Source: a virus
Taxonomy: Duplodnaviria > Heunggongvirae > Uroviricota > Caudoviricetes
Direction: 5' to 3' (one strand)
DNA length: 28,103 nt
IMG/VR virus record: IMGVR_UViG_2529292905_000015
Under the pieces are notes generated by a model that had not been told where the DNA came from, searched no databases, and saw only the letters and a program-made list of their open reading frames with translations. The position numbers and the translations under genes are program-made. Below, in pieces: positions 1 to 9,737 of the stretch; positions within the stretch are counted from its first letter, which is position 1; each line of letters opens with the position of its first letter.

Positions 1-1032
1 TTATTTGATTTCAATTTTGTCCCACTCCCTGCCTCTGTCATCACGATACTGTGATGCCATGGTGTCCGACTTATGCCCGAGAAGATGTTGAGCAAACTTA
101 TCGCTTATCTGCTTCTCATAGAGTCTTGCAGACAAACTGCGCAACTCGTGAAAGGTAGGCGGATCCCCTTCGAAGGAAAGACCTGATGCTTTTCGTGCGC
201 GCATAAAATACCTTGATACTGTGCCGGATGAAAGCGGTTCACGACGAGTAGATGCAATTATGGTTTCTCCGCCAAGAATCTCTTTGCATTTATCAAGTGT
301 TTCCTTCATTGATATCCCGAGAGCATCAACATGCAATGTTGTAGGGATGGCAATTTTTACGCCTGTTTTGCTTTGTTCGACATAAAGATATCCATCTACG
401 ATATCAGACCACTTCATTTCGCATAAATCACCAACTCGCTGCCCGGTAACAACAGCCAGTTCCATTGCAAGTCTGAGCCAACATGGTGATGATTCTGCTG
501 CTTGATAAATTTTCAGGTATTCGTCAGCCGTAAGTCTTGATCTCCTTACCTCTGATTTTGCTGCGCGAGTGGCAGCGACCGGGTTTGTTGTTATATGGCC
601 TTCAGCTATTGCCTCTCGGAATGCATCGCTCAGTGTTGATCTGATTAACTTGGCTGACGCCGCCTTGCCCTCGTCTATGTATCCATTGAGCATTGCCGCA
701 ATTTCTTTTGTGGTGATGTCTTCAAGTGGAGCATCAGGCAGCCCCCTCCTTATTGCTTTAATTTTGCTCATGTAATTTATGAGTGTCTTCTGCTTGATTC
801 CTCTGCTGGCGAGGATTTTTTCGTAGCGATCAAGCCATGAATGTAACGTAACAGAATTATCACTGTTGATTCTCGCTGTCAGAGGCTTGTGTTTGTGTCC
901 TGAAAATAACTCAATATTGGCCTGTATTGCTTCAGTGATTGCTATCCTCCTGTCTCGGCCTAAACCAAACTCTTTACCCGTCCTTGGGTCCCTGTAGCAG
1001 TAATATCCATTGTTTCTTATATAAAGGTTAGG
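1..1032 (-). pseudogene. int: Lambda-type tyrosine integrase (Int), truncated at its 5' end by IS629; lacks about the first 12 codons. The ORF-track extension to 1125 runs into the IS and begins on a TTG.
   Basis: Translation is near-identical to remembered lambda Int from PNLYIRNNGYYCYRDPRTGKEF through the C-terminal REWDKIEIK; stop codon at 1-3 on the minus strand; the IS629 terminal repeat starts at 1033 immediately after the PNLY codons. Confidence 0.85.
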
Positions 1033-3770: not shown

Positions 3771-4432
3771 ATATCTACGAAAGAATTGATGGCAGCAAAT
3801 ACCGAAATATTTGGGTAGTTGGCGATCTGCACGGATGCTACACGAACCTGATGAAAAAACTGGAGACGATAGGATTCGACACCAAAAAAGACCTGCTTAT
3901 CTCGGTGGGCGATTTGGTTGATCGCGGTACAGAGAACGTAGAATGCCTGGAATTAATCACATTCCCCTGGTTCAGAGCTGTACGTGGAAACCATGAGCAA
4001 ATGATGATTGATGGCTTATCAGAGCGTGGAAACGTCAATCACTGGCTGCTTAATGGCGGTGGCTGGTTCTTTAATCTCGATTACGACAAAGAAATTCTGG
4101 CTAAAGCTCTTGCCCATAAAGCAGATGAACTTCCGTTAATCATCGAACTGGTGAGTAAAGGAAAAAAATATGTCATCTGCCACGCCGATTATCCTTGTGA
4201 TAAATACGAGTTTGGAAAGCCAGTTGATCATCAGCAGGTAATCTGGAACCGCGAACGAATCAGCAACTCACAAGACGGGATCGTGAAAGAAATCAAAGGC
4301 GCGGACACGTTCATCTTTGGTCATACGCCAGCAGTGAAACCACTCAAATTTGCCAACCAGATGTATATCGATACTGGCGCAGTGTTCTGCGGAAACCTCA
4401 CATTGATTCAGGTACAGGGAGAAGGCGCATGA
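3767..4432 (+). CDS. ninI: NinI-type serine/threonine protein phosphatase (PPP family)
   Basis: GDLHGCY and GNHE metallophosphatase motifs; near-identical to remembered lambda NinI (221 aa); ATGA overlap with ninG; GAGG Shine-Dalgarno upstream. ninC, ninD and ninH are absent. Confidence 0.9.
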
Positions 4433-4560
4433 GACTCGAAAGCGTAGCTAAATTTCATTCGCCAAAAAGCCCGATGATGAGCGACTCACTACTGGCCACA
4501 GTTTATTGGTTTTCGTAACTGAGTCATTTTATTATTTTATTGCAACTTTTAATCTTTTAT

Positions 4561-4643: not shown

Positions 4644-5603
4644 TTAAAAAAAGAAGGTGATTGCTCCATTTATAAATGAATAGTCATCCCCTGTCTTGAA
4701 TTCTGATGTTACTTTATTAAATGCTAGTGTGAAGGCTACAGGTGCATACCCAATTGTTGCGCCAACTTGATATTCATCAACAGTTTTGTTTAGCGATACT
4801 GTTGTTTGTTTCGTCTGTATTGTTTTTCCTTCGAGAGTATAGTTGCGATTGACATCTCGTCTTTCCATACCTGCAAAAATCTTGTATTTGAATCCGCTTG
4901 TATCGGACATATGCATTAAACCACGGGGAGCCAGCAGACCAAAGCCATTATCCGAATTGAAGGTTTTATCATTACCAATGGCAATGGTTGCGCCATATGC
5001 TACATATTGAAATAAGTTTCCAGTAACAGCAGAAACTTCAGGGTATAATCCAACATTAGCACCTAAAATATCCATACTTGGTGTCATGGATAGCATCCCT
5101 TTTACAGTATAACCGTAGCGATTCTCTATTTGATCATCCCATGCATGATATTTTTCTGCCCCAATAATCTCATGAGCTTTATTTTGTACTTTCTGACCGC
5201 CTGCGTCGGGGCCAACAACACCTATGTCAGTACCTAATCGATAGCGAATCCAGTCATTCGCAAGGGAGTTCCATTCAATACCAGTGTGAGTGTATGCACT
5301 AAAAGCTCTGTCTCCAGTTACAGCTGTGTTGTGTCTTTTATTACTGCCTGATGGAGAGTAAATATCTTGCGCAATATGGAGAGATAATTGGCTCGAGTCT
5401 GAGATATCGTGGCTATATCCCAGAAATAAGCCTTGTGAGTAATCATCTCTGTTTTCATGTTTATTGCCATAAATATCATTAAGTATTGGTTGAAACTTCC
5501 CTGCATCATCATTTGCTAATGATAATGCAAGGCTGTTCGCGATAGCTGAACACGTGGTAAATGACAGAGCAATAAAGACGCCAGCGATGACACTTTTTTT
5601 CAT
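4644..5603 (-). CDS. Outer-membrane beta-barrel protein, cargo gene; tentatively LpxR-like lipid A 3'-O-deacylase
   Basis: 319 aa; N-terminal signal peptide MKKSVIAGVFIALSFTTCSA; alternating amphipathic segments; C-terminal aromatic FFF typical of a beta-barrel signature; AT-rich with atypical codon usage; antisense to the flanking phage genes. Size and position recall the prophage-borne LpxR of EHEC, but this is from memory, not a sequence match. Confidence 0.7.
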   Translation of the reverse strand: MKKSVIAGVFIALSFTTCSAIANSLALSLANDDAGKFQPILNDIYGNKHENRDDYSQGLFLGYSHDISDSSQLSLHIAQDIYSPSGSNKRHNTAVTGDRAFSAYTHTGIEWNSLANDWIRYRLGTDIGVVGPDAGGQKVQNKAHEIIGAEKYHAWDDQIENRYGYTVKGMLSMTPSMDILGANVGLYPEVSAVTGNLFQYVAYGATIAIGNDKTFNSDNGFGLLAPRGLMHMSDTSGFKYKIFAGMERRDVNRNYTLEGKTIQTKQTTVSLNKTVDEYQVGATIGYAPVAFTLAFNKVTSEFKTGDDYSFINGAITFFF

Positions 5604-5993
5604 ATGTTATTGTCTTCCTTTTTTTGAATGGTGCGCGTATTTTACATACATGAGTTTGTAATACAAGGTGCGTAATCAATATGATGTTTTATAATTGCGT
5701 GAGACAATTGATTTATTCGTTTTTTATTGCGGTTTTTATTATCTTTTAATGTAACGGTGTTTTTATTAAGTGTGTTTGCGTGGTGTTTTATGTTTTTTAT
5801 AATTTTTATTTTATTAAATTTAAATGCATTAGTAATGGCTATTCTATATAGCAATATAAGAACTGTTACAAAAAAAGGGGGGGCAATTACAGGTAGTTAT
5901 GGATGATGAGTGAAACAGATATTGGAGAACCGGGGAATGAATGATGTCTGAGTCTTATATATCAGAACTCCTTCGCTGTCGCTGGGGGCTCCT
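5604..5993. promoter_or_regulatory. Strongly AT-rich divergent intergenic region with phased T-tracts (GTTTTTATT repeats); probable promoter region for the cargo gene and Q, and a plausible curved-DNA / H-NS target
   Basis: Repeated T5-6 tracts spaced roughly 10-12 bp apart between about 5690 and 5820; sits between divergent genes. H-NS binding is inferred from composition only. Confidence 0.4.
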
Positions 5994-6767
5994 GTGCTTA
6001 TGTCGTTTCCCCGATTCGGTTTTGAACGATTACCGAATGTTGAAGAATTATGCCAAAATATAGAAAGGATTTACTGCATGAATACCCAATATTTACAGTA
6101 TGTTCGTGAGCAACTTATGGCAGCTACTGCTGACTTGAACGGAGCAACGAAAGGCCAGCTCGAAGCCTGGCAGGAGCATGCACAATTTGATACTGGTACA
6201 TACAAACGAAAGAAGCCGCGCATTCTGGATGTGGTAACTGGCAAGATGATTACGCTGGATAATACGCCGACTTCCGGTAAGCAGTCGTACGCAAAAGGTT
6301 CATCCATTGCTTTGGTCAGCCCGGTTGAATTCTCAACCTCTTCATGGCGCCGCGCGGTTTTGTCTCTCGATGAACATCAGAAAGCATGGTTGCTTTGGTG
6401 TTACAGCGAAAGCGTTCGATGGGGGCATCAGGTCACCATAACGCAATGGGCATGGAGCGAGTTTAAAGATTTGTTAAGTAACAGAAAAATTGCAGGTAAG
6501 ACACTGGATCGCCTGAAGACGTTAATCTGGCTGGCTGCACAGGATGTGAAGAGCGAACTTGCAGGGCGTGAGGCCTATGAATACCAGACACTGGCATCAT
6601 TGGTGGGAGTGACAACAAAAAACTGGTCCGAGACATTTACTGAACGCTGGGTTGCAATGAAGCACATTTTTCTACAGCTTGATAGTGATGCTTTATTGCT
6701 TGTGACGAGAACACGTTCAAAACAAAAGGCAGCATTTTTACAGCAAAATATTGCAAAACTGGATTAA
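5994..6767 (+). CDS. Late-gene antiterminator Q, long form; probable true start at ATG 6078 (MNTQYLQYVREQL...)
   Basis: Sits between the nin region and the PR'-tR' unit and lysis genes; resembles the roughly 250-aa Q proteins of E. coli cryptic prophages (from memory); the track ORF begins on GTG at 5994; ATG 6078 has an AGGA motif about 8 nt upstream. Confidence 0.6.
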   Translation: MLMSFPRFGFERLPNVEELCQNIERIYCMNTQYLQYVREQLMAATADLNGATKGQLEAWQEHAQFDTGTYKRKKPRILDVVTGKMITLDNTPTSGKQSYAKGSSIALVSPVEFSTSSWRRAVLSLDEHQKAWLLWCYSESVRWGHQVTITQWAWSEFKDLLSNRKIAGKTLDRLKTLIWLAAQDVKSELAGREAYEYQTLASLVGVTTKNWSETFTERWVAMKHIFLQLDSDALLLVTRTRSKQKAAFLQQNIAKLD

Positions 6768-6779
6768 AAGCCATATACT
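6751..6779 (+). promoter_or_regulatory. PR'-like late promoter: -35 TTGCAA (6751-6756), 17-bp spacer, -10 TATACT (6774-6779); the Q-utilisation site is expected to overlap
   Basis: Sigma-70 consensus-like hexamers with ideal spacing, immediately after the Q stop and about 35 nt upstream of a strong terminator; a -10-like TATGTT lies in the initially transcribed region, as at lambdoid pause sites. Confidence 0.5.
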
Positions 6780-6814
6780 TCATGCAAATTTGGTATGTTG
6801 TAAAAAATGTATAA

Positions 6815-6839
6815 ACCCGCTGCCGAGTGGGTTTTTTTT
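6815..6839 (+). terminator. tR'-like intrinsic terminator: 7-bp stem ACCCGCU / AGUGGGU (one G-U pair), GCCG loop, then eight T
   Basis: Hairpin plus T8 read directly from the sequence, about 35 nt downstream of the PR'-like -10. Confidence 0.7.
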
Positions 6840-6936
6840 ATGCCCTGAGTTGTACTTGTACGGTAAACATGCTGGCTGCTATGTAATAGAGTTTTTTTAG
6901 CCTGTAACCTCTTGACGGCATTGAATTGCTTTTGTT

Positions 6937-7695
6937 ATGAGTTGTAAGCCAATGTTATCATCTTGTATTGGGGTGGTTATGAAGGATGGTGCGCTGCTCA
7001 GGAGTTCTTCACTTTTTATTGCCTACATGGGATGCCTTGGATGGGGGAGTGCTTATTTCTATGGATGGGGTACTTCTTTTTACTACGGCTTCCCATGGTG
7101 GATTGTAGGTGCAGGTGTTGATGATGTTGCCAGAAGTTTATTTTTTGCAGTTATCGTCATTGCTATATTTCTTATCGGTTGGGGTATTGGTGTTGTATTC
7201 TTTTTCGCAGTGAAAAGAAAACATTCTATGCAAGAGCTAAATGTATTTCGCCTTTATTTTGCTGTGGAATTATTGTTTGTGCCGGCAATTATTGAGTTTT
7301 CTATATTGAGACAGAAGATTCAGGTACCTCTTTTGCTACTGTCAGCAGCGATTGCGCTGGCGGTTACAATTTCGATAAGATCTTATGGGCGATTTTTATC
7401 GGTATCATGCTTCTATGATAAGCCATTTATAAAAAAACATTTTTTTGAGATTGTGATGATTGCTTTTGTGGCATATTTCTGGCTTTTTTCATTTCTGACA
7501 GGATATTACAAACCACAGTTTAAGAAAGAATATGAAATGATTAATTATAATGATGGTTGGTATTATGTTCTTGCTCGTTATGATAATTGTCTGGTTTTGT
7601 CTACTTCTTTCAATGCAGGTAGTAAAAGGTTTGTCATTTATCAATCAGCACAAGATAAGAATCTTCAGGTTGATATTGTAAGGACCAGAATTTAA
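6937..7695 (+). CDS. Polytopic inner-membrane protein of unknown function (moron between Q and the lysis cassette); start ambiguous (ATG 6937, 6952 or 6979)
   Basis: About 5 predicted hydrophobic helices, an aromatic/Gly-rich N-terminal segment (GWGSAYFYGWGTSFYYGFPWW) and a roughly 60-aa hydrophilic C-terminal tail; AT-rich; possible own promoter TTGACG (6912-6917) with TATGAG about 18 bp downstream. Confidence 0.65.
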   Translation: MSCKPMLSSCIGVVMKDGALLRSSSLFIAYMGCLGWGSAYFYGWGTSFYYGFPWWIVGAGVDDVARSLFFAVIVIAIFLIGWGIGVVFFFAVKRKHSMQELNVFRLYFAVELLFVPAIIEFSILRQKIQVPLLLLSAAIALAVTISIRSYGRFLSVSCFYDKPFIKKHFFEIVMIAFVAYFWLFSFLTGYYKPQFKKEYEMINYNDGWYYVLARYDNCLVLSTSFNAGSKRFVIYQSAQDKNLQVDIVRTRI

Positions 7696-8125
7696 TTGGC
7701 TGCATAAATAATATTTTAAGTTGCAAGTTGGCTATTCGTAGGAATAGAACCTTAGGCATGCTGAATGCGTTTCCTGAACATTGTTTTATAAACTGTGTCT
7801 GCTTGCTGTTGTGATCCTGCTTTTAGTGATGGTGATGATGGATTTCACCAGCAGGATAATGTTGGTACTGACTGATGGCGCTCTGGTCTGCGGCATTGTG
7901 GTATTGCTGTGGCCGATGATGAAAGAACAGAATGAATAATTCTTGACTTTTTTGTTTACTGTTTATTAAAAAATCAACCGCATGGTGAATCCTCCTTGGA
8001 GGGGCTAAATGATCGAGTTTTAAGGGCACGTAGCGAGTTCTGTTTGATCATTGCAGAACTTAGCGGGAGGCGCCATGCGTACATCACTAATGTTATTTCC
8101 TTCTATCATTTTCCTTGTGAGTTCT

Positions 8126-8152
8126 GGCTGCGCATGGCGCGGCCTTTTTTTT
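8126..8152 (+). terminator. Strong intrinsic terminator: GGCUGCGC-AUG-GCGCGGCC hairpin followed by eight T
   Basis: 8-bp GC-rich stem with one G-U pair and a T8 tract, read directly; lies downstream of the moron and upstream of the lysis cassette. Confidence 0.7.
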
Positions 8153-8328: not shown

Positions 8329-8380
8329 ATAATAAAAAAGAGCCAGCGCAGAAGAGAACGGGTAAAAGAGTCTGCGCTGG
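8329..8380 (-). terminator. Minus-strand terminator-like element: perfect 10-bp inverted repeat (CCAGCGCAGA / TCTGCGCTGG) with an 18-nt loop, followed on the minus strand by CTCTTTTTTATT
   Basis: Read directly; the U-rich tail exists only on the minus strand; a consensus-like minus-strand promoter lies about 55-110 bp upstream of it (see findings). Confidence 0.5.
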
Positions 8381-8560
8381 CGTGGGGATATTCCCCGTGG
8401 AGAAATGATATGTAACACACATCGGGAACCTTTCTATATAAACATTATCATTATTGTCAATCATAACAGTCAGGTATTATGACGTTTATGCATCAGGGCC
8501 ATCAGGAATTAACTGGTGGCTTTTTATTGTTGTCAGCTTCCGGATAACGGGAGACGGGGT

Positions 8561-8776
8561 ATGTACCAGATGGAAAAAATAACAACAGGTGTGTCATACA
8601 CCACGTCAGCGGTGGGGACGGGATACTGGCTACTGCAGTTGCTGGACAAAGTCTCCCCATCCCAGTGGGTGGCAATAGGCGTATTGGGTAGCTTGGTGTT
8701 TGGCTTGCTGACGTATCTGACAAACCTTTATTTCAAGATTAAAGAAGATAAGCGTAAGGCTGCGAGAGGTGAATAA
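8561..8776 (+). CDS. S: Class II holin, phage 21 S-type pinholin, with a dual-start motif (MYQMEK)
   Basis: [66 protein letters not shown] closely resembles remembered S21; two transmembrane segments; stop overlaps the endolysin start. Confidence 0.85.
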
Positions 8777-9273
8777 TGTCGCCATCATTACGCAAGGCTG
8801 TTGCTGCTGCTATTGGTGGTGGGGCTGTTGCCATAGCGTCTGTGCTCATCACTGGTCCGAGTGGTGACGATGGCCTGGAAGGTGTCAGCTACATACCATA
8901 CGAAGATATCGTTGGCGTATGGACTGTATGTCACGGACACACCGGAAAAGACATCATGCCCGGTAAAACGTATACCGAAGCAGAATGCAAAGCCCTCCTG
9001 AATAAAGACCTTGCCACGGTCGCCAGACAAATTAACCCGTACATCAAAGTCGATATACCGGAAACAACGCGCGGCGCTCTTTACTCGTTCGTTTACAACG
9101 TGGGCGCTGGTAATTTCAGAACATCGACGCTTCTTCGCAAAATAAACCAGGGTGATATCAAAGGCGCATGTGATCAGCTACGGCGCTGGACATACGCTGG
9201 CGGTAAGCAATGGAAAGGGCTGATGACTCGCCGCGAGATTGAGCGTGAAGTCTGTTTGTGGGGGCAACAATGA
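8776..9273 (+). CDS. R: SAR (signal-anchor-release) endolysin, lysozyme-type, phage 21 R-like
   Basis: N-terminal Gly/Ala-rich weakly hydrophobic segment ([20 protein letters not shown]) followed by a lysozyme-like domain; immediately follows the pinholin. Confidence 0.85.
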
Positions 9274-9737
9274 GCAGAGTAACCGCGATTATCTCCGCTC
9301 TGGTTATCTGCATCATCGTCTGCCTGTCATGGGCGGTTAATCATTACCGTGATAACGCCATCGCCTATAAAGAACAGCGTGATAAAAAAGTCAGTGAGCT
9401 GAAGCAGGCGACCGCCACCATTACTGACATGCAGCAGCGCCAGCGTGCTGCTGATGCACTCGATGCTAAATACACGAAGGAGTTAGCTGATGCGAAAGCT
9501 AAAAATGATGCTCTTCGGCGCAAGCTTGATAATGGTGGTCGGGTGTTCGTCAAAGGAAAATGCCCTGTGCCATCCTCAGACGAAACCTCCAGCGCCTCCG
9601 GCATGGGCAATGATGCCACCGTCGAACTCTCTCCAGTTGCTGGACGAAACGTTCTCGGTATCCGGGACGGAATTATCCGCGACCAAACAGCACTGAGAAC
9701 GCTTCAGGAATACATCAGGACGCAATGCCTTCGATGA
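9270..9737 (+). CDS. Rz: Rz i-spanin (inner-membrane spanin subunit)
   Basis: N-terminal transmembrane segment ([20 protein letters not shown]) then a coiled-coil-like charged periplasmic domain; ATGA overlap with the endolysin stop; contains the embedded Rz1 frame. Confidence 0.8.
9490..9696 (+). CDS. Rz1: Rz1 o-spanin (outer-membrane lipoprotein), embedded in the +1 frame of Rz
   Basis: Lipobox ...IMVVGCSS and a proline-rich mature region ([13 protein letters not shown]); N-terminus MRKLKMML resembles lambda Rz1; lies entirely within Rz. Confidence 0.75.

Follow-up and report, generated by a model that had tools for sequence, protein, structure and literature searches.

The DNA considered here is a stretch of 28,103 nucleotides (nt), the viral record IMGVR_UViG_2529292905_000015 (Caudoviricetes), which in its whole length is called the window below and is numbered from its first letter. 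At the end of its antiterminator gene, Q, a promoter is followed within a few dozen nucleotides by a terminator. I propose that the two, with what lies between them, are very probably the PR'-qut-tR' late-gene control cassette of a lambdoid prophage of the phage 434/82 type, in the most compact form that this cassette takes. It is a known kind of element, belonging to the textbook account of how lambdoid phages control their late genes. Its parts are the following.

6751..6779 (+): late promoter PR', with the -35 hexamer TTGCAA at 6751-6756 within the final codons of Q, a 17-bp spacer and the -10 hexamer TATACT at 6774-6779
6786..6839 (+): predicted PR' leader RNA, its +1 (A6786) taken from Cappable-seq and its 3' end placed in the U-tract from the position of the terminator
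6791..6799 (+): predicted sigma70-dependent pause-inducing element, TGgTATGTT at +6 to +14, with a pause expected at U+25 (6810)
6813..6839 (+): intrinsic terminator tR', found by a terminator scan, with a hairpin at 6813-6834 (core CCCGCU/AGUGGG) and U8 at 6832-6839

The late promoter and its conservation

An initial annotation of the window had placed a promoter across the end of Q, and TTGCAA-17-TATACT is indeed there. To call it near-consensus, as that annotation did, is to overstate the case: the two hexamers fit the consensus at 9 of 12 positions. A consensus scan of 6 kb came upon 12 promoter-like sites, against 14.5 expected from shuffled sequences, and by its sequence alone PR' is not significant. 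It is nonetheless real, because two independent lines of evidence say so: a mapped transcription start and conservation in relatives.

The start comes from a published Cappable-seq map of strain EDL933 (genome NZ_CP008957.1), made in exponential and stationary phase in LB, M9, acid and salt (PMC10469882). In all eight conditions there is a start at 899803 on the plus strand (Table S5 of that paper); the Q gene of EDL933 ends at 899784. Direct sequence mapping puts 899803 at window 6786, and the correspondence is exact because EDL933 and the window differ between 5900 and 7000 only in T7 versus T8. A transcript beginning near 6786 was what the initial annotation would have had looked for, and 6786 is the very nucleotide. 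Among the starts of this region it is the principal one in three exponential-phase conditions, where its mean relative read score is 252-326.

From A6786 to the U-tract the leader RNA is predicted to be 53-55 nt long. A short RNA from promoter to terminator had been foreseen, and that much stands; the length given for it, roughly 50 nt, was a little low. When 54-57 nt of leader are folded the energy is -15.3 kcal/mol, with z = -3.4 relative to shuffles. PR' is annotated neither in the phage 434 record nor in RefSeq.

The same place carries something on the other strand. A perfect CII-type repeat, TTGC-N6-TTGC at 6743..6756 (-), is the paQ of the phage 434 annotation and overlaps the -35 hexamer of PR', TTGCAA being a palindrome. 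The prophage has no remaining cII gene. Cappable-seq gives a weak antisense start at window 6739 (-) in two of the eight conditions.

The second line of evidence, conservation, begins with near-identical copies. Phage 434 (OL657226), viable and one of the classical lambdoid phages (PMC9119081), matches window 6078-6900 at 100% identity, and window 5900-7000 is identical in the O157:H7 strain PV15-279. The prophages Sp3 of strain Sakai and CP-933K of EDL933 differ from the window over that region only in having T7 instead of T8 in the U-tract. Of 5426 complete E. coli genomes, 621 (about 11%) contain at least 80% of 6740-6845, and about 880 further ones match only through about +15.

More is learned from distant relatives. 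A sample of 100 loci encoding relatives of Q came down to 39 distinct sequences, 20 of which were from a scan of one genome per species; these represent about 12 genera, and their Q proteins are 59-73% identical to that of the window. Across the 39, the fraction of sequences with the majority base is 0.99 in the -35 hexamer, 0.91 in the -10 hexamer and about 0.85 from +1 to +14, falling to 0.44-0.52 beyond +27. Constraint thus acts on the promoter and the pause/Q-loading region and spares the rest of the leader.

The unconstrained part sorts the leaders into classes. Those of the compact class, 51-55 nt long, come from the window and phage 434, Superficieibacter, Scandinavium, Citrobacter and an Enterobacteriaceae genome. 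They share closely similar AACCCGC...GCGGGUU terminators, and the stem of the terminator starts 3 nt past the expected pause site. Leaders of the IsrJ type (71-78 nt) are found in Gifsy-1 and five other genera, and those of the 82 type (78-82 nt, with an extra GCCA...UGGC hairpin) in phage 82 and many E. coli prophages. The others are scattered, 69-119 nt long or without a nearby terminator.

Pause, terminator and Q in the proposed late-gene switch

There is a well-studied guide to what might happen downstream of the start. At the pR' promoter of phage 82, a -10-like pause-inducing element with an extended -10 is followed by GCC at +15 to +17, and the polymerase pauses at U+25 (PMC5001585). 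The phage 82 sequence was reconstructed from two loci, L080 and L082, whose Q is the phage 82 Q. After TATATT-N6 these read AAATCTGATATTTTGCCAATGTTGT, which gives GCC at +15 to +17 and U at +25 and so fixes the register. In that register the window reads AAATTTGGTATGTTGTAAAAAATGT, with TG at +6/+7, TATGTT at +9 to +14, GTA at +15 to +17 and U at +25 (6810). The comparison with phage 82 proposed in the initial annotation was a fruitful one: -35, -10, +1 and the extended -10-like element all stand in the same register, and a pause near +25 would be expected.

Three nucleotides on begins the terminator. Its hairpin, AAACCCGCU/GCCG/AGUGGGUUU, has nine pairs (not the seven first counted), including four G-C, one G-U and three A-U that draw on the T-run, and the segment 6813-6834 folds at -12.0 kcal/mol. 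With that energy and U8 behind it, tR' is predicted to be strong, as the initial annotation had supposed from the hairpin and T8 just after the promoter; the record of phage 434, too, marks this hairpin as a terminator. RNA polymerase that has not been modified should be released here, giving an RNA of about 54 nt.

Put together, the parts suggest a switch. RNA polymerase with sigma70 would initiate constitutively at A6786. The extended -10-like repeat TGgTATGTT, transcribed as +6 to +14, would capture sigma70 a second time, and the enzyme would pause near +25. Where there is no Q, it would escape the pause and be released about 29 nt further on, at the hairpin and U8 (+52 to +55), leaving the 54-nt RNA behind. 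Where Q is made, from the gene just upstream, it would load on the paused complex and turn it into a terminator-resistant polymerase, able to read on into the membrane-protein, lysis and structural genes. Downstream of tR' these lie on the same strand: a membrane-protein gene at 6952-7695, then holin, lysozyme and Rz at 8516-9737, then terminase. On this account the late-gene switch leaves the short RNA mainly as a by-product.

Of the features that mark a Q82-type unit, four are found: an adjoining Q of family PF06323 on the same strand, an active sigma70 promoter with its start in register, an extended -10-like element and an intrinsic terminator; the pause at +25 and read-through with Q are predicted. 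One accessory feature, present in phage 82 and in most relatives, is absent: the GCC at +15 to +17. It is not required for membership, because viable phage 434 uses the identical GTA sequence.

A simpler view of 6786 would make it merely the promoter of the downstream membrane-protein gene, the hairpin being a leaky attenuator outside the control of Q. The Cappable-seq study lists 899803 as the gene-specific start of RS04265 (PMC10469882). The membrane-protein gene, however, has starts of its own at window 6948 and 6968 (EDL933 899964 and 899984), detected in nearly all conditions, the second of which fits a TG-extended promoter, TTGTTA-18-TATCAT (6932-6961); in the lysogen, then, expression of this gene does not depend on Q. 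Moreover, promoter, pause element and terminator travel with Q, while past the terminator the relatives carry unrelated sequence or tRNA genes. I consider the simpler view very improbable.

Q and its immediate surroundings are as follows.

5944..6063 (+): ylcG-like small gene upstream of Q, a YlcG family protein in RefSeq and in phage 434; it overlaps, in another frame, the open reading frame (ORF) from GTG 5994
6051..6066 (+): putative promoter of Q, with an extended -10 TGcCAAAAT at 6051-6059 and a start at A6066, 12 nt before the Q ATG
6078..6767 (+): Q antiterminator of the phage 82/434 type, 229 amino acids (Pfam PF06323, E = 1.7e-91)

Q is 100% identical in nucleotide sequence to CPT_434_67 of phage 434, and it is 90.9% identical to the Q of phage 82 in nucleotides and 88.7% in amino acids. 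The initial annotation had spoken of a long-form Q, 257 amino acids from GTG 5994. That is a purely mechanical ORF start and has to be given up, because the PF06323 match begins at residue 32 of the ORF, because the RefSeq, phage 434 and phage 82 records all begin Q at MNTQ (window 6078) and because the longer frame overlaps ylcG. The real gene encodes a standard protein of the Q82 type. A sequence search of the PDB with Q gave no meaningful match (best E = 0.12) and turned up no protein of the Q82 family.

How Q comes to be transcribed was a question raised at the outset, the early region having been deleted. It is indeed gone, with no cI, cro, N, O or P gene left, and the question can be partly answered. 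Cappable-seq has a start at EDL933 899083 (+), which is window 6066, in all eight conditions, with a mean relative read score of 19-57. The sequence TGcCAAAAT at 6051-6059 is probably the extended -10 promoter from which it arises; phage 82 does not keep it and reads CGcCAAAAC there. The prophage, which retains its lysis genes, thus transcribes an intact Q gene constitutively.

This last point is one of four that weigh against the switch as I have drawn it. If Q, with its start in all conditions, were present at useful levels, it would bypass the terminator constitutively. The efficiency of termination at tR' is itself judged from sequence. Published work narrows the Q-binding element of the 82 family no further than -31 to +30 (PMC4914094). 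Finally, mutating GCC at +15 to +17 cut the half-life of the phage 82 pause 2-5 fold (PMC5001585), and with GTA in that position the pause of the window may be shorter or shifted.

The main value of the proposal is a correct annotation: the cassette marks the point at which Q would let transcription into the lysis and structural genes of an O157:H7 prophage that is defective and carries effectors. There may be a practical use as well. With promoter, predicted Q-loading pause and terminator packed into about 90 bp, the cassette would make a handy minimal template on which to study Q82-type antitermination.

The leader as a candidate small RNA

Might the 54-nt leader do something more, acting in trans in the lysogen as a chaperone-dependent small RNA (sRNA), as has been reported for StxS and IsrJ? 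I think it unlikely, although there is something to be said for it. The leader is made constitutively and fairly strongly, and in exponential phase it scores 5-10 times as high as the Q start. At its 3' end an A/U-rich stretch leads into a hairpin and U8, and such an arrangement is the usual Hfq-binding 3' module. IsrJ is the leader of a promoter of the same family as the PR' of the window. The authors who described StxS propose antiterminated phage promoters as a general source of sRNAs (PMC7547250).

What tells against a trans-acting role is chiefly how little of the RNA is free to play it. Nearly every base of the leader has a job in cis, in the pause and Q-loading from +1 to +26 or in the terminator from +28 to +54, and there is little room for a seed. 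Nor does the leader match the IsrJ model, even at E <= 10, or possess the internal hairpin of IsrJ.

Searches for traces of a regulator came back empty. The sRNA table from Hfq-CRAC (cross-linking and analysis of cDNA) in Sakai has no entry for the PR' of Sp3, and ECs0815 is nowhere in the tables; this is weak evidence, since that sRNA table left out peaks closer than 100 nt to a gene (PMC7547250). Weak too is the negative from the supplements of the RNase E CLASH (cross-linking, ligation and sequencing of hybrids) study, which have no entries for ECs0815 or ECs0816. When the 5' 30 nt of the leader were paired with the 69 translation-start regions of the window, the best energy was -15.6 kcal/mol, a value matched by 8% of shuffles. 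A text search of the literature for the leader sequence brought up only unrelated primer matches. On balance the regulatory reading is somewhat disfavoured, because there is so little free sequence in the RNA.

Sp3 of Sakai does produce Hfq-bound sRNAs elsewhere. Two convergent ones are EcOnc13 (about 187 nt), at about 8086-8152 (+), and EcOnc32 (about 112 nt), at about 8333-8416 (-) (Tree 2014, Table S2). Their terminators lie at 8126-8144 (+) and about 8342-8380 (-), the intergenic region that holds them ranks first in the Hfq-CRAC intergenic table, and neither RNA matches an Rfam family.

The link to IsrJ deserves a closer look. IsrJ is a 74-nt sRNA of the Salmonella prophage Gifsy-1, whose deletion lowers invasion and effector translocation (PMC2330248). 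The Rfam model isrJ (RF01393, "isrJ Hfq binding RNA") matches Gifsy-1 at 4047-4121 of our locus L106, inside the stretch of interest at 4015-4121. Before the match stands TTGCAAAACTGGATTAAAA...TATATT...AAATCTGATAT, as in the promoter family of the window, and the longer upstream sequence, ATTGCAAAACTGGATTAAAAcggcTATATTttatgtAAATCTGATATCG, shares promoter and initial transcribed region with the window. The alignment and this upstream sequence agree in giving the window, too, a Q82-type PR' with a 5' end of the AAAUCUGAUAU type. In five other genera the model matches directly after the stop codon of Q (loci L005, L008, L011, L021 and L022, at about 2206-2285, with 38-80 bits). Because of the shared upstream promoter and these matches right after Q, IsrJ is, to judge by its genomic context, a late-promoter leader RNA of the Q82 family. 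It is not described as such in the IsrJ and IsrK papers and reviews consulted.

It does not follow that the leader of the window is an IsrJ. Between 6600 and 7000 there is no isrJ match, either at the gathering threshold (37 bits) or at E <= 10. The link supports the idea that late-promoter leaders may serve as sRNAs in general, and not the case of the window RNA specifically. Three other resemblances may be set aside. STnc240 (RF02074) scored 28.2 bits (E = 0.015-0.03) against a threshold of 55 bits, in an alignment made up mostly of the terminator and an A-run. The Phe leader, from a permissive Rfam scan of 6600-7000, scored 24 bits, below threshold and driven by the terminator. IsrK follows directly after Q in Gifsy-1, as part of a P1-type C4/antirepressor module that is unrelated to the window.

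One can go a step further and imagine that the 54-nt leader is a constitutive, chaperone-bound, trans-acting sRNA, and with it the minimal form within a superfamily, so far unrecognised, of leader RNAs from Q82-type late promoters, Salmonella IsrJ included. I would give this little chance of being right. If it were right, the phenotypes of IsrJ deletions would need re-reading, because deletion of isrJ also removes a late-promoter control site of the phage. Through the IsrJ link, the recruitment of late-promoter leaders as sRNAs can be put to a direct test in a second family, and a widespread one.

The surrounding prophage and comparison with known systems

The cassette sits in a prophage that has lost much. 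Window 1-1032 is the integrase region, and 1033-2343 is an IS3-family insertion sequence, 95.7% identical to the IS1203-like element annotated in PV15-279. Within it, at 1368-1484, an IS3-type ALIL frameshift pseudoknot is the only match in the window to Rfam at gathering thresholds. Past the element, from 2343 on, the prophage picks up again a little before ninB. The element thus stands between the integrase region and ninB, where it has taken the place of the genes for recombination, immunity and replication. The deletions that Sakai and EDL933 carry at this place are different.

Further on there are signs of an exchange. A remnant of 24 codons from the N-terminus of a lambda-type Q (4428-4499) is followed on the opposite strand by lpxR, a lipid A deacylase gene (4644-5603), and after that comes the module of ylcG and Q82-type Q. 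The segment 4428-5603 looks like the scar of a swap of late-control modules that brought in lpxR. Phage 434 has the same arrangement of remnant, lpxR, ylcG and Q.

Among known systems, lambda is the most familiar. Its 6S RNA, of about 193 nt, is likewise a leader made constitutively from the late promoter and ended at tR', with a sigma70-dependent pause at which Q loads. In lambda, though, the pause is at +16/17, the -10-like element lies nearer the start and the leader is about 3.5 times as long as that of the window. The prophage of the window keeps of the lambda-type Q only the N-terminal remnant just described.

Phage 82 comes far closer. It has the same Q family, the same -35 TTGCAA, 17-bp spacer, -10 (TATAyT), +1, pause element and U+25, and after these an intrinsic terminator. 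It differs in having GCC and not GTA at +15 to +17 and a leader of about 78 nt, lengthened by the extra GCCA...UGGC hairpin; in the window the leader is about 54 nt and the terminator follows 3 nt after the pause site. With the E. coli prophages of the 82 type, the homology of the window ends at about +15.

IsrJ shares an identical -35 and start of the spacer, has TATATT as its -10 and ends in an intrinsic terminator; its initial bases are AAAUCUGAUAU, where the window has AAAUUUGGUAU. At 74 nt, with an internal GUCGCC...GUCGAC hairpin, it is unlike the RNA of the window, which has no such hairpin. IsrJ carries a reported virulence phenotype, and none is reported for the window RNA. In Gifsy-1, a module of isrK, C4 and antirepressor is inserted between Q (AntQ) and the isrJ promoter.

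There remains StxS, the parallel drawn by the initial annotation. StxS, 74 nt long, is cut by RNase E out of a PR' transcript of 258 nt; it is bound by Hfq and targets rpoS and stx1B (PMC7547250). In the Stx1 and Stx2a phages, as is expected for the window, a constitutive PR' transcript is ended at tR' in lysogeny (PMC7547250). The likeness is one of position only, no direct comparison of sequence with StxS having been made. There RNase E trims a long primary transcript down to a stable 3' fragment; here the whole RNA, of about 54 nt, would consist of the pause/Q-loading region and the terminator. A second likeness to Stx phages lies in the relatives of the cassette. In other genera (loci L004, L006, L009 and L013, at about 2250-2690) one to four tRNA genes stand directly after the late terminator, much as tRNA genes lie downstream of tR' in Stx phages.

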